DNA of 64,000 nucleotides. It comes from Octopus vulgaris. Taxonomy: Eukaryota. The translations under genes and the position numbers were made by a program. The notes beneath the pieces are model-generated. The model had not been told where the DNA came from, ran no database searches, and saw nothing but the letters and a program-made list of their open reading frames with translations. Positions 4,258-54,583 of this stretch are shown one piece after another (the first letter of the stretch is position 1; each line of letters begins with the position of its first letter). Where the stretch lies: the NCBI GenBank assembly GCA_951406725.2, contig OX597831.1, forward strand, positions 34,534,001 to 34,598,000. The letters are read 5' to 3'.

Positions 4258-4574
4258 AGAAAATAGATACTAATTTTGATACTTATATATCGCAACTGAG
4301 TTGTCAGCAAATATGCCAACGTAATATCTTCAGAGGGGGAAAAATATACCCTGCTATAATGAATCCAAAAACACATCCAAAGGTATATATTTTCCCTTCT
4401 GATGATATTATGCTCATATCATATAAATGTAACTTTAGCGTTTACTTAATATTTACTGAGTATTAATTGAAACAGCTGTAAGTGAAGATGATTAATTTGC
4501 TGCTAATAATAAACAATTATTAACTTTTCAATCCCCATTTTCTTTTTCTTCTTTCATATGCCTATCTATCTATC

Positions 4575-6060: not shown

Positions 6061-7077
6061 TGGGTACGCTCCATAGTAAAATTCAGGATGAAAAAGAAAG
6101 ACTTCTGGCGAGTTTAGTAATTTGCGTAAGATAGCATTGCGTAAATGATACCCAAAAATAAAAATAATGATAATAATAATAATACTAATAAAAGGATTGG
6201 GTGGTCATCACCAGAAAGTTTTTAATCAAAAGTTTGCTGAATCGACGCTGTCCCGGGGCTAAACAACAACAACACTAATAATAACAAAAACAACAACTGC
6301 AGCAACGTTAACAACTGCAACGCTTTTATGTCCAGGTCGCTACCTTTTCTTCCCCTTCCATCAACATTTTATATTGAATATTATATTAATACATACTCGA
6401 TCCCTGCTTCCCTTTACATGAATATTAATCCACCCCAAAGCGAATCAATAGCGGTATATATTTCAGCAATATTATTAGATATGAGAGCGACTTCTATTGT
6501 ATGGATGATAAATGTCGCTAAGAAAAATCAATTTCCAAAGTCAATATATAACATTTCTCAGAACGTCTTACCTTAACCATCGCAAATATGCTTACTTAAA
6601 CTTCGTCTTCTTTTCCTTTTTCTTCTGTTTTTCTTTGTGTTTCTTTTTCTTTCTTTCTTCCTCTTTCCACATCAGAAAGATTCATAGAGCTTGTGCTTAT
6701 TTCCGGTTTCTGTAGTATTCAACAGATGAAGGCCAATACTCCACCGCAGCCGTTACCATCGTCACAGCCACCACTGCTACCGCAATCTCAGCCGCGCATA
6801 TATAATTGATGTTCGATGACATGCAGTAAATCTAAACGAGTGTGTGTGTAACAGAACTGAGCGCGGTGGCAGGCTAACAAAATACTTAGTGAAGCAAGTG
6901 CTAACAAACTTAATGTGGTGAACACAGTAACTTTAATTAACCGATATTATCAGCATCACCACGAAAGACGCGTGGCCGAGTGGTTAGGATGTTTGGCTCA
7001 TGTTCTGTAAACCATAAGTTCGATTCTCGATCCGACAACAAAGTACTTCATTTTTATGTTTCTCCAGTCCAAGCAGC

Positions 7078-9942: not shown

Positions 9943-10149
9943 GTGAAATAGAAAGATGAATAATCTTGTAGTAGATTAATCAAAAGTTTAACCGATACCT
10001 TAGTAGCAAAAATCACAGCAGTAAAACAGCACGGCTGGAGGTACAACCATATGGTGTTGCAACCGTGCGTTGGTGCGGATAATTGAAATTAGAACATTAT
10101 TGGTGAATTGAAGAAATGGAGCTGAACGCAGATTGAACAGAAATCGTTT

Positions 10150-10243
10150 TATTTCATTCTACACGTGTTTCGAAAGGCACAAATTACCAAAATCCGATGG
10201 AATAATGGGACCATATTGTGTCTTTCTCTTCAGGAAGAAAATA
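10150..10243 (-). ncRNA. Type I hammerhead ribozyme motif (left arm)
   Basis: Mirror of 10390-10482: CUGAAGA, stem II gaaagacacaa/uugugccuuuc, GAAAC-ACGU-GUA, stem I. Confidence 0.7.
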
Positions 10244-10389
10244 AAATCCGTTGGAAAAACAAAAACAGAACAGAGGCGGAGCAAAAACAAATCGAACTAT
10301 GCTCCTAAGAGCCCATGGGCTCTTAGGAGCATAGTTCGATTTGTTTTTGCTCCGCTTCTGTTCTGTTTTTGTTTTTCCAACGGATTTCC

Positions 10390-10482
10390 TATTTTCTTCC
10401 TGAAGAGAAAGACACAATATGGTCCCATTATTCCATCGGATTTTGGTAATTTGTGCCTTCGAAACACGTGTAGAATGAAATA
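10390..10482 (+). ncRNA. Type I hammerhead ribozyme motif (right arm)
   Basis: Stem I tattttcttc/gaatgaaata, core CTGAAGA 10400-10406, stem II gaaagacacaa..ttgtgccttc, GAAAC 10461-10465, palindromic ACGT loop, GUA triplet 10470-10472. Confidence 0.7.
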
Positions 10483-10537
10483 AAACGATTTCTGTTCAAT
10501 CTGCGTTCAGCTCCATTTCTTCAATTCACCAATAATG

Positions 10538-10582
<45 letters not shown>

Positions 10583-11007
10583 TAATCAATATAGGGTGGC
10601 AAAAAATTTCGTAGAATTTATTTGCCACCAGCGGCCTAGTGGGAAAAAATTAAATAGTCATAGACCATTTATAAGTTCAACATCACAATCAAGGAATGGC
10701 CATAATAGGCCATTCACCCACTAGAAATAACACCCAAAGCTTCAACCGCAAAATAACATTAATTCCGCAAACCAGGAGAAAATTAAAAAAACATTTTACC
10801 CTGTAATTTCTTATACGATGCACCGTTTCATCTATTGTTTAATGGTAAACTAACCTGATTAAATTAAATCAAGCCAATCTTCCATAGGCCGATAGATTCG
10901 TCAGTAAGAAACAGCCAGATCCGAGCAGATATTATCACGAGGCACCTCTATCCCTGCCTCGGCAATATCTGACCTAAAATTTTCAAATCATCGCACTCGC
11001 ATATATA

Positions 11008-11262
11008 TATTTTAAAAATATAAGTTTATGAAAGAATGGAGTTGAACGACTTGTTAACAAATTTCCTTTATTTTCGACATATGTTTCGAAGGCTGCATAT
11101 TCCTAATTCCGAAGGAATAAGGAGTACATTATGCAGATTTATGTACTCCTTATTCCTTCGGAATTAGGAATATGCAGCCTTCGAAACATATTTCGAAAAT
11201 AAAGGAAATTTGTTAACAAGTCGTTCAACTCCATTCTTTCATAAACTTATATTTTTAAAATA
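11008..11262. repeat. 122-bp-arm palindrome with 11-nt loop in a (TA)n-flanked element (~10580-11416)
   Basis: Arms 11008-11129 and 11141-11262 with one mismatch. They carry a half hammerhead (ccttcGAAAC-ATAT-GTC) and share atggag.tgaacg with the 10093 palindrome. Confidence 0.95.
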
Positions 11263-11430
11263 AACATACAAATTTCCGCACGAAAGCACGTAGTCTATGC
11301 CCTAGGGACGTAACTTCAACCGTGCTAGCCAGATAACGGAAGAGATGGTGTTGTGGATTTCCACTTCGGCATCTGAAACTCAGAGTTTTATCTTGACTAT
11401 CGAATAATGTAACATATTATTTGTATAGAT

Positions 11431-12507: not shown

Positions 12508-12903
12508 TCCCTTCTTCTAAAGGCACAATGCTTGAAATTTTGGGGAAGGGTACCAGTCGATTACATCGCCCCAGTGTGTCACTGGTATTTAATTTATCGA
12601 CCCCGAAAGGATGAAAGGCAAAGTCAACCTCGGCGGAATTTGATCTCAGAACCTAGCAACGGACGAAATACCTATTTCTTTACTACCCACAAGGGGCTAA
12701 ACACAGATAGGACAAACAAGGACAGACAAACGGATTAAGTCGATTATATCGACCCCAGTGTGTAACTAGTACTTATTTAATCGACCCCGAAAGGATGAAA
12801 GGCAAAGACGACCTCGGCTGAATTTGAACTCAGAACGTAACGGCAGGCGAAATACGGCTACGCATTTCGCCCGGTGTGCTAACAATTCTGCCGGTTCTCC
12901 GCC

Positions 12904-12970
<67 letters not shown>

Positions 12971-25405: not shown

Positions 25406-25817
25406 AGGCGCAGGAGTGGCTGTGTGGTAAGTAGCTTGCTTACCAACCACATGGTAACGGGTTCATTCCCAATGCATGGCAACTTGGGCATGTGTCTTCT
25501 ACTATTGCCTCGGGCCGACCAAAGCCTTGTGAGTGGATTTGGTAGGCGGAAACTGACAGAAGCCCGTCGTATATATGTGTATATATATATGTGTGTGCGC
25601 GCGCGCGCGTGTGTGTGTGTGTGTGTGTGTGTATGTTTACGTGTCTGTGTTTGTGCCCCCAACATCGCTTGACAACCGATGCTGGTGTGTTTACATTCCC
25701 ATAACTTAGCGTTTCGTCAAAAAATAGAATACGTACTGGGGGTCGATTTGCTCGACTAAAGGCGGTGCTCCAGCATGGCCGCAGTCAAATGACTGAAACA
25801 AGTAAAAGCGTAAAGAG
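25406..25817 (+). mobile_element. SINE family C
   Basis: Consensus match. Confidence 0.85.
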
Positions 25818-25829
25818 CATATATATATA

Positions 25830-26127
25830 TAAAAGAAGTTTGAAAACGCCACTTATAAGATAAATTTTAATTTTCTTAGAGATTTTACATGTTTCGGTTC
25901 TTCTTGAAAAAACGAACCTTATCAAAAATATTTCAAAAAGTTAAGTGTAATAAAAAAAAAGTTCATAATTGTTTCTTACTAGTCTCAATAGAGTCCACGT
26001 GGTGGTATTTTGTGGTGGGGAGCATAATGGCTGTCTTGTGCGTTGACTAGATTCGTTGGCTGTAAGTATGAAAATGACCAGTGCCCGAAATAGCAGTAGT
26101 AGCAGTGACTGTTGGTCGTAGTAGTAA
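25830..26127 (-). mobile_element. (TA)n-flanked element with variant hammerhead motif
   Basis: Minus strand 25883-25928: ttt-TTGATAA-ggttc/gaacc-GAAAC-AT-GTA-aaa. Homologous to 54155-54480. Confidence 0.55.
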
Positions 26128-26196
26128 TATATATATATATATATATATATAATGTAATGTATATGTTTATGTTTGTATATTAGGTAATGTGTGTAT

Positions 26197-26988
26197 ACTC
26201 TTTTACTCTTTTACTTGTTTCAGTCATCCGACTGCGGCCATGCTGGAGCACCGCCTTTAGTCGAGCAAATCAACCCCGGGACTTATTCTTACAGACACAC
26301 AAACACACACACATACAAATACATATATATATATATATACATATATACGACAGGCTTCTTTCAGTTTCCGTCTACCAAATCCACTCACAAGGCATTGGTC
26401 GGCCCGGGGCTATAGCAGAAAACACTTGCCCAAGATGCCACGCAGTGGGACTGAACCCGGAACCATGTGGTTGGTTAGCAAGCTACTTACCACACAGCCA
26501 CTCCTGCGCCTATGTACCTTTTTATATATTATGTGTGTGTGTTTGTATATTTATGCATGTATGGCGCAGGAGTGGCTGTGTAGTAAGTAGCTTGCTAACC
26601 AACCACATGGTTCCGGGTTCAGTCCCACTGCGTGGCATCTTGAGCAAGTGTCTTCTGCTATAGCCTCGGGCCGACCAAAGCCTTGTGAGTGGATTTGGTA
26701 GACGGAAACTGAAAGAAGCTTGTCGTATATATGTATATGTATAGATGTATGTGTGTGTATATGTTTGTGTGTCAGTGTTTGTCCATCTAGCATTGCTTGA
26801 CAACCGATGCTGGTGTGTTTACGTCCCCGTCACTTAGCGGTTCGGCAAAAGAAACCGATAAGTGACGTATATAATAAGTACTGGGCTTACAAAGAATAAG
26901 TCCCGGAGTCGATTTGCTCGACTAAAGGCGGTGCTCCAGCATGGCCGCAGTCAAAATGACTGAAACAAGTAAAAGAGTAAAAGAGAGT
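26197..26988. mobile_element. Head-to-head pair of family C SINEs (26197-26511 -, 26563-26988 +)
   Basis: Two consensus matches in opposite orientation, ~50 bp apart. Confidence 0.85.
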
Positions 26989-28717: not shown

Positions 28718-29110
28718 TAATAATAATAATAGTTTCAAATTTTGCCACAATTGCAGCAATTTTGGGGGAGGGGTTAAGTCGATTACATCGACCCCAGTGT
28801 ACAACTGGTACTTATTTTGTCGACCCTGAAAGGATGAAAGGAAAGTTGACTTTGAAAGTAGCGGCAGACGAAATACGTATTTCTTTACTACCCACAAGGG
28901 GCTAAACACAGAGAGGACAAACGAGGACAGACAAACGGATTAAGTCGATTATATCGACTCCAGTGCGTAACTAGTACTTAATTTATCGACCCCGAAAGGA
29001 TGAAAGGCAAAGTCGACCTCGGCGGAATTTGAACTCAGAACGTAGCGGCAGACGAAATACGGCTACGCATTTCGCCCAGCGTGCTAACGTTTCTGCCAGC
29101 TCACCGCCTT
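28340..29110 (-). mobile_element. Family B SINE cluster around a (TAC)/(AAT)n array at 28523-28731
   Basis: Three consensus matches, with more decayed copies continuing to ~29720. Confidence 0.85.
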
Positions 29111-30389
29111 TATAATTATAATAATTATAATGATGATGATAATGATGATGATGATGATGATGATGATGGCTTCGGAAACAAATTTAGGATTCTTTCGATC
29201 AGACATATTCAAACGTAGCTCCGTGGAAGAAAAAGAAATAAAGAAACAAACAAGCAAACAAATGAACGGAAGAAAGAATTGTTCCTAATTTTATCGAACC
29301 TTGAATGGATACAAAAAGCAAAGTTGATTGCAGTGATATTTGAACTCACAACGTTAAGATCCGAAAGGAATACTGCAAAGTATTTCCCGATGCTCTACGA
29401 ATCCTACCAACCCACCGCCCTTTGTAGAAACAAAACCAATAACGTTGAGAGTTAATCGATAGCATCAACCTCAGTGCATGACTGGCACTTCAGTTTATCG
29501 ACCCCAGAGAGATGAAAGCCAAAGGTGGCCTTTGCGAGATTTGAACTCAGCTCTTTCAAGAGTTCTATGATTGACGGAAGTTACTTTTTTTATCGGCCCC
29601 AGAAGGATGAAAAGCGGCGATGATATCAGTAGTATTTGAACTCAATGCGTAAAAAGCCGGAAAAAAGTATCGCATAGTAATTATATTCGACGCTATAACG
29701 AGTCTACCAATCAGGCGAAATTAATTGTTTCTGGTTAAAGCACAACGCTAACAATTTTGAAGGGAAGGTTTTGTTGCCAACCTCTAGAGAGGTGGCCCTA
29801 GCAGGATTTGGAATCGGAATAAAATTTTAAACATATTTGATCCCATTCTCTAACGACTCTGCAAATTCGCTAACTGAATGAGCTATAAAATTGTTCAATA
29901 GAAGATTCAAAAACGATTAATGTTGAATCTATTGACTTGTATAAGAAAAGCAGTATGGACAGCTAACTGCAACAACAACGACATCAACACCAACGTCAAA
30001 ATTCTGTCATTTATAACTTTTGCTTATTCGAATAAAGGAAACATTTTGCATTCAAAGACTTTTGGCCAATTTCACTAATTCGATTATCACTCACTAATAG
30101 TTCCTTCAAGCAATTTACCGCTTCAGTAGTTTGGAGCTCTTGAGTCTCTGTAGTTGAGATGCCAAAAATTACTTTAATGGAAAATATATCAGTAACTTCT
30201 AAAGTAGAGCCGTACGACATTTTAAGGTGAATCTCTACTCGAACCAGCTCCAGGAAAGGAAGTAGAAAGTGGCCGGGTATGTTAGAAATTTTACCAAGAA
30301 GGGGCCTCGTGGAATGTGGCATACTTCAGGGGTGGGGCTAAAAAGAGGAACCTTCATGTTTTCTTGGAAAAGGTGTTAAAATAAACTTT

Positions 30390-30848
30390 CATAGGTTGTA
30401 AGGCTAACGATGAGGTGAAGAGATATATGATATCAGGTCACAAGAATATGACCATAGACTAGAGTTATTGGCACAGACGTTGACTCTTGGGCTTTGGTCC
30501 CTTTGCTAAACACACCTGAGCACAGTTACGTGCCACATTACATAGGTCTCAGGAACATGGTGATCAAGGCGTCAGGACAATGACACGGATGTCGGCCATA
30601 GGTTGTAAGGCTAACGATGAGGTGAAGAGATGAGGTTTAGAACTGGTGAGACACTTCTGGCCACTGTCAGGTGCCATATTACGCAGGTCACAAGAATATG
30701 ACCATAGACTAGAGTTATTGGCACAGACGTTGACTCTTGGGCTTTGGTCCCTTTGCTAAACACACCTGAGCACAGTTACGTGCCACATTACATAGGTCTC
30801 AGGAACATGGTGATCAAGGCGTCAGGACAATGACACGGATGTCGGCCA
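30390..30848. repeat. Near-identical tandem duplication (units 30390-30596 and 30597-30846)
   Basis: The units are identical except that 52 bp (30632-30683) of unit 2 is replaced by 9 bp (atatgatat, 30425-30433) in unit 1. Confidence 0.95.
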
Positions 30849-32650: not shown

Positions 32651-33194
32651 CTCAACTAGTTTCATAGATTTTTCTGATTTTCTTAAATTAGAGTGAGATG
32701 GAAAGACGTGGGGGGGGACTATGTCTTGCTTCTGACTAGAGTTCGAAAATTCGCGTATTTGTAGAGACAAAATGACTTAAATTAATATCCATTAAATGGA
32801 TACATTTTTTTTTTAATCAGTAGAGAATTATCACGTGATTAGCCTTAGAAATGTTTGCATGTTCCCAACTACGTCCGTGCGTTAGTATAATATAACAATA
32901 TTTTTTGCACTCTAAGTTTAGGCTAACATGCGTATCAGCCAAAGTGTATTCTAAACAAATATTAATTTGAGTCATGTGCTCTCTATAAAAACAAAAGAGA
33001 ATTTTCGAGCTTCAATCAAATGCAAAATAGCTGCGCCATAGCCGCACGCCTTTCTATCTCAAATTTTTGAAAATCAGAAAAATCTGTGAAACCGGTTAAG
33101 CCATTAAAAATAAAACAGATAAAAGACTGCCAGTGCGTTTTCCACTTCTTTGCTCTTATATTTTTATGCACATAGAATAAAATAACTTTCTTTC

Positions 33195-39725: not shown

Positions 39726-39955
39726 CATGTATGCGATCATAGGTCTAAACAAGAGAGACAGAGAAAGGCAGAAACAAGGAAAATGCCACTTATATTTGAA
39801 CCCTATACAAATATTCTTTTAAAAACACTTTTCTTTTAATTTTACTAAATTTAATTATTTAATAGTTGCAGTTGAAAAGGTCCCAAATGACCGAAACCGG
39901 TACTGAAATGTTCTTTATAGAATTATTTTAGCATTTTCTATCTTGACTTGTTTAT

Positions 39956-43280: not shown

Positions 43281-43678
43281 CTATTTGGGATATAAATGAG
43301 TTATGAGGCATCTTTTGATGTACACATTAGCACAGCACCAACGATGTGTAAAAGGAAAGCGGGTTGGAACCTGAGATCATTTAGTACCAGGGGGCAAAAT
43401 ACCATTCTACATTTATGGCGAAAACTTTACCGTTTGTTGCCTGGACTACTGCTCATAATGATGGTCGCCAAACAGTATTAAATTAACAACAAAACCTGAA
43501 GCAATCCAAAGATGCTTCGCACGCTTTACGGAAAGAGCTAAGCTGCTGCGAGTCGTTGAAAGCATTGAAACTCTACTCCCTGAAGAGAAGATATGCGTTG
43601 ATCTTTACATGGCAGACCCTTAAAGGGCTCGCACCAAACTTCGGTAATGAAAACTATACCCATCCCCAAATTGGTATA

Positions 43679-44969
43679 CGAGGGACGTTCAATAAGTAAT
43701 GCCTCTGACCCACTTGCAGTTGTTTGATCTAGCTGAAATGTTGCATGTGTAATCATTTATATATCTATAGAGTAAGTGGCAAATTACAGCTCTAAATTAA
43801 TTGTGGTTTCTGATTTACAGGTGTTTGAACCGAGTCAAGTGTGAAATGGAGCCTGTTGAGTGTCGAGCAGTGATCCGGTTTTTGTATTTGAAAGGACGCA
43901 CACCACGGGAGACTTTTGATGAAATGAAAGTAACTTATGGTGATGATGCCCCATCATATGACCTTGTAAAACGCTGGCATCGTGAATTCAAACATGGTCG
44001 GAACTCTGTGGAAACAGCTCCCAGATCTGGTCGCCCCCTTCTGCCATTGATGAGGCATCTGTCCGTCAAGTTGAGGCTGCCATTTTGGAAGATCAACGCA
44101 TAACTATTCGCCAAATAGCCCATGAGGTCAAGATTAGTACCGGGTCTGTGGAAACTATCATTCATGACCATTTGCATATGCAAAAGGTGTCTACCAGATG
44201 GATTCCCAGGCTGCTCACGCCTTTCCAGAAGCAAGAACGCGTCGAGTGCTCGAGGGTGAATTTGGAGATGTGCCAAGAAGATGGGTCAAAATCTTTCAAA
44301 AGACTGATTACACAGGATGAAACCTGGGTCCATCACGATGATTCAGAGACCAAAGCCCAGTCAATGCAGTGGAAGCACCGTGACTCACCCCCTCCAAGTA
44401 AGGCAAGGATGCAGCCCTCCGCTGGCAAGGTCATGCTCACAGTCTTCTGGGACCAGGACGGAGTAGTGATGACAGATTTCCTGGCAAAGGGTACCACAAT
44501 TGCAGGAGCCTATTATGCTTCACTTTTGAGGAAATTAAGAGAAGTTATCAAAATCAAGAGGCGGGGCAAGATCAGCAAAGGCATCCTCCTCCTGCAGGAC
44601 AACGCTCCGGTCCACAACTCGCTTGTCGCCAGATCAGAAGCACAGGCGTATGGCTATGAACTCCTCCCCTATCCCCCTACTTTCCTGACCTTGCACCCTC
44701 TGATTTTCACCTCTTCCCAGTGATGAAGTTGTTTTTGAAAGGAAAGCGTTTCCCAGATGATGCAGCCTTGATTTCTGAAGTCGCGTTCCGGTTGGAGGAC
44801 CAAGCTGGGGTCTTCTACAAAAACGGTCTCCAGAGCTGCATCAAACAATGGGAGAAATGCGTAACTCTGGGTGGTTCCTATGTAGAAAGAGACTAATAAC
44901 TGTGCCAAGTTTCGTTGCTCTACTGCTATGGGAAGTGGGTCAGGGGCATTACTTATTGAACGCCCCTCG
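43679..44969 (+). mobile_element. Full-length mariner (DD34D) transposon, 1291 bp
   Basis: TIRs cgagggacgttcaataagtaatgcctctgacccact / agtgggtcaggggcattacttattgaacgcccctcg, with TA TSD at 43677-78 and 44970-71. Confidence 0.97.
43846..44896 (+). pseudogene. Mariner transposase with two frameshifts
   Basis: MEPVECRAVIRFL..PRSGRP / WIPRLL..TQDETW..LQDNAPVH / YFPDLAPSDFHLF..YVERD*. Frameshifts fall in C-runs near 44035 and 44675. Confidence 0.93.
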
Positions 44970-46022
44970 TATGCTCATAGGTTATGTGCATATACGCATA
45001 AATACACTTACACAAATATTTATACGGTTCTATAAATACTTATTATTTTGTTTTCTTATTTTGATATCCTTTCCTATTAACCTCTTATCCCTTATAATTC
45101 CTTACTTTCCTTGTTCTTAAATAGATATTTTTCAGTTACGTAGGTCTATGCGAGATGGTTATCCTATATCCTTATAAACGTATAAATATCTGTGTATGTG
45201 CATATGTGCATATAAGAACATATATAAATGTGTGTGTGTATCTGTATGCATCTTTACTTTTTTCTGATTCATGGCTTAAAATTAATAGATAACATGTATA
45301 TCTTTCCAGTTATTCCATAAGTAAATGCCTCGAGCAGTCTTTATACAAACCACCTTATAAGTAATTAATTAAGTACAGGAATGAATATTAAACTGATTCT
45401 ATGTAATCTTTCCTTTTTAATGTTTATAAGTGATATATACACACATTTTGCCTATTTTGGTTATGATATCATTTTTGAAAAATCTTTAATTTTATTTTTA
45501 TACAACATAACAATATTGTTTATAAACAATCACCCATAGTGCCCCAAAATAAAATTTCCTCTGTATTAACATATTAGCTCTCTTAGCGTCTTTCCCCTTT
45601 AACTGGTAATTAACATCGTGATTTAAAGTCTTCCCCTACCCAACCTCTTTTTATAGACGGTTACTTATATCCAATTGACTACTCCTAATGTCTTCTTTCC
45701 TCCCTGGGGAAAAGGGATACATACGATAATATTTATGACCATACCTAGCCATGGGCTGTCAACTAACTCTTCTCCTTTATTCAAAGTAGAATCAGTCTTC
45801 TAGTCTTAGATTTAGTAATTGATAAAGAGATAAATGAATTAGAAATGAATTACAATCCCTTACAATACTATTACCCCAATAGGCTTCATATGATTTTCGG
45901 AAGTGTAGTCTATTCTTAGCTACAATAGCGACATCATAAATTTCTTCCATCTTGTTCTGTTAAAATATTTGAGAAAAATTATATTAATGTATCCTACTTG
46001 TTAAAATTCTATTTATTTATTT

Positions 46023-46110
46023 GTGCAGCTGAAGATGGCACTACATTTAAATCGATGTAATGATTGCATTGTTCAATTAAATGGAACTGCTTGAAACGGT
46101 CGTACTGCAT
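46023..46110 (+). ncRNA. Type I hammerhead ribozyme motif
   Basis: Stem I gtgcag/ctgcat (6 bp), CTGAAGA 46029-46035, stem II ggca/tgct with a large loop, GAAAC 46093-46097, GGTC loop, GUA 46102-46104. Confidence 0.75.
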
Positions 46111-46139: not shown

Positions 46140-46843
46140 ATTTTAGAAATATGATATTTCTAAATCTTTCAGAGAGATTTATACAGTAGCAGTACGATAA
46201 AGTGATGGTATGCTGCCAACTTAATGTGGCCGTCCTATGAATAGGAAGAATGCTACTGCTATTTAGCCCAAGGAAACACCGTTTCCAGTTGGCCATGGCA
46301 CATTTTCTGTGTCCTTATGTTTTCAAAGGGGAGATAAGCACCTCCACCCAGCATAGCCAGCACTCGGGGTCTAGTTTCAGAGTCATTGCTCATCGTCAGT
46401 CTGGAGTAGCATGGCTTGCTAGCTGTCGATGCTTATTCGCCTCTGAAACCATAGATTTCAAGTGAAATACATTCACTGATTTCACATTAAGTTGGCAACT
46501 TTATAGTGATGCTACTGTACTCTCTGAGAGATTTAGAAATGTAATATTTCTATTTTAGAAATCAGTGAATGTATTTCACTTGAAATGTATGTTTTCAGAG
46601 GCGAATAAGCATCGACAGCTAGCAAGCCATGCTACTCCAGACTGACGATGAGCAATGACTCTGAAACTAGACCCCGAGTGCTGGCTTTGCTGGGTGGAGG
46701 TGCTTATCTCCCCTTTGAAAACATAAGGACACAGAAAATGTTTCATGGCCAACTGGAAACGGTGATTCCTAAGGCAAATAGCAGTAGCATTCTTCCCTTT
46801 CATGGGATTGCCACATTAAGTTGGCAATATGCCATCACTTTAT
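46140..46843. repeat. Inverted repeat (arms 46197-46483 and 46558-46843) whose spacer is an inverted copy of 46140-46229
   Basis: Arms are clearly alignable with scattered substitutions and contain CTGACGA-tgag/ctct-GAAAC (46642-46667). Confidence 0.9.
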
Positions 46844-52267: not shown

Positions 52268-52490
52268 ATTGTATAAAGGATCGTGGGTAAGGCCAGAACA
52301 ATGCGAAGTAAATGCAAGGTAAATCACAAGAAAACAAATACGTGAATTAATGTAGACTTATCTTGTATTCAATAACCCCGAAATACTGAATATAAGGTAA
52401 GTCTGCATTAATTTACATGTTTGTTTTCTGGTGATTTATCTTACATTTATTCAGCATTGTTTTGGCCTTACCCACGATCTTTTATACAAT
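52268..52490. repeat. Diverged inverted repeat, ~104-bp arms, 15-nt loop
   Basis: Arms 52268-52371 and 52387-52490. Mismatches are mostly transitions. Confidence 0.9.

Positions 52491-54118: not shown

Positions 54119-54583
<465 letters not shown>

Follow-up and report, generated by a model that had tools for sequence, protein, structure and literature searches.

Hammerhead motifs at the locus

The window, which is the whole 64-kb stretch of DNA that was analysed, consists of AT-rich, microsatellite-rich eukaryotic repeat DNA. It contains eight hammerhead motifs, four with U3-A8 in the core (copies A, B, C and F) and four with C3-G8 (copies D, E, G and H). Copies A, B and C are complete minimal type I motifs with the U3-A8 core, stem II, GAAA, a palindromic stem III and a GUA site. 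The features are as follows.

25831..26126, minus strand: non-coding repeat stub of ~300 nt that carries copy A and is rich in T immediately 5' of it, no Pfam match
25882..25929, minus strand: copy A, a minimal hammerhead of type I whose stem I pairs 25929-25926 and 25885-25882
25925-25919, minus strand: core of copy A from U3 (25925) to A9, A8 at 25920
25918-25914 with 25900-25896, minus strand: stem II of copy A
25895-25892, minus strand: GAAA of copy A, followed by the palindrome ACAUGU (25892-25887)
after A17 (25886), minus strand: predicted cut of copy A
25819..25830: (TA)n array, 56 nt 3' of the cut site of copy A
26127-26150: second (TA)n array, on the 5' side of copy A
54250..54287, minus strand: copy B, U3-A8 hammerhead motif with imperfect palindrome AUAUGU (U-G wobble) and predicted misfold, (TA)n at 99 nt
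39869..39905, plus strand: copy C, U3-A8 hammerhead motif with core UUGAAAA and palindrome ACCGGU, (TA)n at 56 nt
33064..33100, plus strand: copy F, fourth U3-A8 motif, absent from the earlier note, with core UUGAAAA, a U-U pair closing stem II, palindrome ACCGGU and a GUU site, (TA)n at 104 nt
32654..32684, minus strand: F', decayed inverted partner of F, with core AAGAAAA and palindrome ACUAGU
10090..10542: head-to-head inverted C3-G8 pair D/E with long stem II and palindrome ACACGUGU, arms 98-99% identical
10160-10233, minus strand: copy D, C3-G8
10400-10472, plus strand: copy E, C3-G8
46023..46110, plus strand: copy G, C3-G8 motif with long stem II, 6-bp stem I and 8-nt stem III with wobble pairs
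4399..4480, plus strand: copy H, C3-G8 hammerhead-like, the weakest candidate, with long stem II and 2 contiguous bp of stem I

The earlier note, which names no strand, had described TTGATAA in place of CTGATGA at 25883 and 54250. Both strings are real and are read on the minus strand, where the reported stems II (ggttc/gaacc and ggtttt/aaaacc) are indeed paired, as GGUUC..GAACC and GGUUUU..AAAACC. The TTGAAAA at 39872 is present on the plus strand and is part of a complete hammerhead motif (copy C). Copy A reads UUGAUAA GGUUC..GAACC GAAA CAUG UA from 25925 to 25886 on the minus strand with a stem I of 4 bp, copy B reads UUGAUAA GGUUUU..AAAACC GAAA UAUG UA from 54284 to 54253 on the minus strand with a stem I of 3 bp, and copy C reads UUGAAAA GGUC..GACC GAAA CCGG UA at 39872-39902 on the plus strand, again with 3 bp. 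Common to the three are UUGAWAA, a stem II starting with G-C and a 6-nt palindrome over A15.1-U16.1. Their stems I and II are paired in 97% of cells with two-sided changes in 5 of 11 pairs (n=3), counted on a structure that was itself derived from the same three sequences.

Further candidates in the window were ranked with a covariance model of copies A, B and C, and the next-ranked region was that of copy F (33055-33107, 18.8 bits, E 0.067). The two core types differ in build: a short stem II goes with a 6-nt palindrome in each of the four U3-A8 motifs, and the four C3-G8 motifs, from three insertions, each combine a long stem II with an 8-nt stem III. Head-to-head inverted pairs are formed by D and E and by F and F'. 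When F' (32654-32684, minus strand) is compared with F (33067-33097, plus strand), the palindrome is kept, with ACCGGU changed to ACUAGU, though the core is lost; this change may be a double CpG deamination. A WKLL stretch upstream of copy H, reminiscent of a Hydra endonuclease motif, had no Pfam match.

The surroundings are rich in other repeats. A broken mariner/Tc1 element with inverted ends lies at 43676-45222 (HTH_48 at 43801-44100, Transposase_1 at 43986-44720). Long near-perfect inverted repeats with 83-95% identity are found at 46144-46843, just 3' of copy G, and at 11002-11268, 52268-52490 and 26348-26725. There are at least three abundant SINE-like families (2307-2545, 12512-12908, 28758-29113, 25656-25814, 26198-26290 and many more), and the stub with copy A sits between two pieces of one of them. 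These SINE-like repeats suggest an octopus genome. Exact direct duplications of 165 nt and 35 nt with 100% identity at 30390-30848 are possibly an assembly artefact.

Chance level and model searches

Two descriptors were compared with shuffled sequence. The first left positions 3 and 8 free, with a strict version requiring a stem II of at least 4 bp, and its null was 200 local dinucleotide shuffles. With a stem III palindrome of at least 6 nt it matched the window five times, at copies A, B, C, D and E (stem II of E being 3 bp under the rule), and the strict version gave a mean of 0.03 and a maximum of 1 match per shuffled window (n=200). Matches under looser settings at 6698 and 8902 lack the 3-8 pair or stem III, are at chance level (0.565 per shuffle) and were discarded. 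The second, wider descriptor allowed a U-U pair closing stem II and was run against 500 shuffles. With a stem I of at least 3 bp it found six motifs (A, B, C, D, F and G), with H appearing at 2 bp, against a shuffle mean of 0.112 and a maximum of 2. A Watson-Crick pair at 3-8 was present in all six, compared with 34% of the 56 matches in shuffles, and neither descriptor found a motif in the window with a mismatched 3/8 pair and a full stem III. The motifs of copies A, B and C are not due to chance.

Rfam gave no match in the window at the gathering threshold. When short stretches were searched, copy C matched HH9 with 24.8 bits (E 1.9e-4), below the gathering score of 52, and copies A, B and F matched none of the Rfam hammerhead models. 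In an E-value scan of the window, the 150 listed of 382 matches were almost all of miRNA type on microsatellites and inverted repeats.

Outside the window the free-3/8 pattern matched seven loci in viral contigs and two in metagenome contigs, none of the nine being a complete hammerhead of the copy A-type family, and it had no match in prokaryote genomes. One metagenome contig of 1.4 kb (L009, 967-1116 and 390-447) holds several minimal hammerhead motifs, some in each orientation, and among them are two C3-G8 motifs with the palindrome ACAUGU. It is likely to be repeat DNA of a host animal and a repeat separate from the copy A family.

U3-A8 in the repeat family of copy A

The state of the core in the family was assessed by mapping contig sets X2, X3 and X4 and raw reads X23 onto 25826-26132. 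From three organisms (organisms A, B and C) 1188, 518 and 819 contigs were mapped, so the family is abundant in the contigs of all three. Depth peaks on the motif and is concentrated on a ~120-nt module around copy A; contig depth is not a copy number, contigs lose rare variants and relatives less than 80% alike are left out. Opposite-strand joints are present in the contigs. Together with the inverted pairs in the window, the contigs fit a family of many dispersed copies, with truncation and inversion among its insertions; the X23 raw reads (1934 Mb, same species label as X2) did not show this, with only two reads mapped and none on the motif, which conflicts with a high copy number in that sample. 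Runs X9-X16, presumed to be RNA, shared ~0.3 of the words of a query with SINE flanks and were given no weight, and insect and termite runs with small shares were left aside.

Substitutions at 3% or more occupy 62 rows, and among the 40 listed none in the three contig sets falls within 25882-25932, nor at 25925 (U3) or 25920 (A8). Copies with C3 would show up at 25925 as A>G, and copies with G8 at 25920 as T>C. Provided that the tally refers to places with 3% or more, listed rows at other positions explain the eight A>G and three T>C places of X3 in full; among the rows beyond the 40 listed, X2 has three such places (A>G once, T>C twice) and X4 also three (A>G twice, T>C once). Counted on the listed rows, variation touches 12 of 89 positions in the flanks and 0 of 48 in the core (Fisher p=0.008, zones set post hoc). 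A 3-nt deletion at 25898 (14-19% of depth) lies within a TTC repeat and the GAACC arm stays.

U3-A8 thus looks like the family state of the copy A repeat and not like decay. A CUGAUGA consensus with independent decay, which the earlier note had named as one case that would overturn its proposal, is unsupported because the core is invariant and the flanks vary on the listed rows. The motifs are consistent with selection at the family level. The proposal that the swap reflects function and not decay therefore stands in part: it is a Watson-Crick swap at 3-8 and not copy-by-copy decay, but this does not extend to the function of solo copies.

Folding and predicted activity

C3-G8 is described as a Watson-Crick pair of the active hammerhead core (PMC3884650), and the statement that this tertiary pair tolerates U3-A8 agrees with PMC3088659, in which U3-A8 is reported to be natural and active in vitro. 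A hammerhead whose stem III is a short palindrome probably has to dimerize, and PLE (Penelope-like element) motifs of this kind are reported to cleave weakly in vitro (PMC4209133). One PLE hammerhead is described as needing the protein of the element, and as dispensable for insertion in vitro (PMC11167929).

A short palindromic stem III that could form dimers is present in A, B and C, with predicted self-duplex energies of -4.6 kcal/mol for A, -8.3 for C and -0.8 for B, the weakest. Minimum-free-energy folding of five copies recovered the hammerhead fold in none. The hammerhead-compatible fold is predicted to lie 4.3 kcal/mol above the best fold in A and 2.3 in C, and the monomer folds are not unusually stable except in B, via a misfold. 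The best fold of B (-9.9 kcal/mol) buries GAAA and the cut site, as opposed to -2.6 kcal/mol for the hammerhead-compatible monomer with stem III open. At 54253-54294 on the minus strand, the 5' flank of B (UACAUAUUUU) could pair with GAAAUAUGUA over 10 bp, in a predicted off-state hairpin that may be either decay or a switch. With B predicted to misfold, conservation of the family is no proof that solo copies would work.

Copies A and B lie on the same strand, their stem I arms (UUU/AAA) are compatible and the stem III hetero-duplex between them is predicted at -2.7 kcal/mol. It is conceivable, though far-fetched, that dispersed solo copies of different subfamilies pair via their stems III within host transcripts and cut them, which would be a hidden repeat-encoded layer of RNA cleavage. 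If true, a U3-A8 lineage missed by CUGANGA surveys would have swept these genomes densely (the 64-kb window has four intact U3-A8 motifs and as many with C3-G8).

Origin of the repeats

The motifs are minimal type I hammerheads with U3-A8, probably in the 3' repeat (pLTR) of a (TA)n-targeting PLE lineage and left in the genome as 5'-truncated solo stubs. Six of the eight motifs end 56-104 nt 5' of a (TA)n array, compared with 8.5% of window positions within 105 nt (binomial 9e-6, with a cutoff of 105 nt chosen post hoc and D and E not independent). Hydra-clade PLEs are described as targeting (TA)n with the motif near the 3' end, and inverted insertions, with which the pairs D/E and F/F' and the opposite-strand joints of family A agree, are described for PLEs (PMC8557442). 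The 234 stop-to-stop frames of at least 55 aa in the window, and 32 frames upstream of the motifs, yielded neither an RT nor a GIY-YIG remnant; this search was confined to the window and to stubs of only ~240-330 nt. The stubs are likely leftovers of PLEs, a link that rests on architecture because such a remnant was not found.

The independence of the copies, on which the earlier note relied, is not borne out, and they are probably not separate swaps. Copies A and B align with 73% identity over 82 nt, and the alignments A-B, A-C and B-C beat 300 of 300 shuffles, mainly over the motif and the T-rich flank, whereas D aligns with none of them. Because all four U3-A8 motifs share the short stem II and 6-nt palindrome and all four C3-G8 motifs the other architecture, U3-A8 looks like an inherited mark of a lineage and not like repeated swaps, although the numbers are small.

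The swap probably originated in master elements, in one or a few events, and then spread by retrotransposition. Within transcripts that carry the element in tandem, two motifs would pair via the palindromic stem III and cut after GUA or GUU, and this cutting would keep the 3-8 pair as U-A. Selection would then act on tandem master transcripts rather than on solo stubs, and the isolated genomic copies would be mostly silent, B most of all.

An unlikely alternative is that masters whose ribozyme had lost its importance became fixed for U3-A8, an AT-biased change that is neutral or even crippling, and that the uniform core reflects no more than a young burst. The region has ~36% GC and the two changes are both transitions that lead to A/U, the monomer folds are not unusually stable, minimal motifs are reported as poor cleavers in vitro (PMC4209133) and cleavage as dispensable for PLE insertion in vitro (PMC11167929). 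A burst does not readily explain why the flanks vary while the core is without variant in the listed rows (p=0.008), or why four diverged U3-A8 subfamilies retain all other core bases and paired stems. The window also lacks any motif that combines a full stem III with a 3/8 mismatch, and U3-A8 ribozymes are reported as active in vitro in PMC3088659, which cites its reference 32.

It is still less probable that the stubs are non-autonomous hammerhead retroelements, such as dispersed monomers of non-LTR retrozymes or SINE-like units, in which case the ribozyme chemistry would be the same. The lack of an ORF in the window and the depth centred on the ~120-nt module would fit such units, and retrozymes are argued to derive from PLE pLTRs (10.64898/2026.07.22.740005). 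Against them, no tandem array of units occurs in the window and no 3'-to-5' head-to-tail joint was seen in the family A contig and read mapping, while inverted pairs with (TA)n flanks are PLE traits and the short stem I of 3-4 bp resembles that of PLE minimal motifs. That the swap arose independently in each copy and was selected each time as a working ribozyme, as first proposed, is very improbable: stems I and II of A, B and C differ yet stay paired and their flanks are weakly alignable, but in 4 of 4 motifs U3-A8 goes together with a single architecture, A and B are alike as given above, B combines a wobble palindrome with its misfold (-9.9 versus -2.6 kcal/mol) and F' has lost the core.

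Comparison with known systems

The U3-A8 motifs closely resemble the Cercyon PLE hammerheads of Schistosoma mansoni, for which a U3-A8 descriptor gave ~1,300 matches (Cervera & de la Pena 2014, PMC4209133). Both are minimal type I motifs with U3-A8 covariation and UUGAUAA and UUGAAAA cores, which the supplement of that paper lists (UUGAUAAA and UUGAAAAA). Shared are also the U-rich 5' flank, the short stem I, the mostly solo occurrence with some close inverted pairs and the palindromic 15.2-16.2. The shortest Cercyon form differs in that stem III here is a 6-nt palindrome, as in the Drosophila, rotifer and shrimp variants of the same paper. Further differences are that A, B and C have no extra base between 9 and 10.1, that the host is another and that no ORF was seen. 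A PLE-linked Saccoglossus motif described there has U3 with G8, so pairing at 3-8 is not absolute in nature.

The Hydra-clade PLE hammerheads, including Hydra-1_Obim (Craig et al. 2021, PMC8557442), have the same (TA)n preference and a motif near the 3' end, and a U-U or similar pair closing stem II, here found in F, G and H. Unlike A, B, C and F, the rows of File S2 in that study are all C3-G8 with mostly longer stems III. Its core search string began with cuganga and would miss U3-A8. The copies were also considered as Naiad 3' ends with missed U3-A8 cores, but short-motif text searches turned up nothing like a hammerhead in the passages covered of the published consensus files. The motifs of A, B, C and D had no match in the Naiad and Hydra consensus files (2 of 6 TTGATAAGG places covered; line breaks in the files may hide matches).

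Among the natural hammerheads of Perreault et al. 2011 (PMC3088659), several show the same U3-A8 covariation, with reported activity in vitro and tolerance of a U10.1-U11.1 mismatch. There they are rare variants, whereas here they belong to an abundant retroelement family. Non-LTR retrozymes (10.64898/2026.07.22.740005) are similar as non-coding repeats with type I hammerheads and as kin to PLE pLTRs, but are defined by tandem arrays, of which the window has none. The UUGAUAA in PMC7373991 is a pistol ribozyme sequence and irrelevant. No cephalopod or octopus report of the U3-A8 variant was found in the literature within reach, which excludes most subscription papers and bioRxiv supplements.

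The U3-A8 swap has already been published (2011, 2014) and the copies in the window are an ordinary new example of it. They are of modest weight in adding an abundant U3-A8 hammerhead family, present in the contigs of three organisms, to a known variant. Surveys that require CUGANGA, and the Rfam gathering thresholds, would undercount such families, given that four of the eight motifs are U3-A8 and none of the eight reaches the gathering score.
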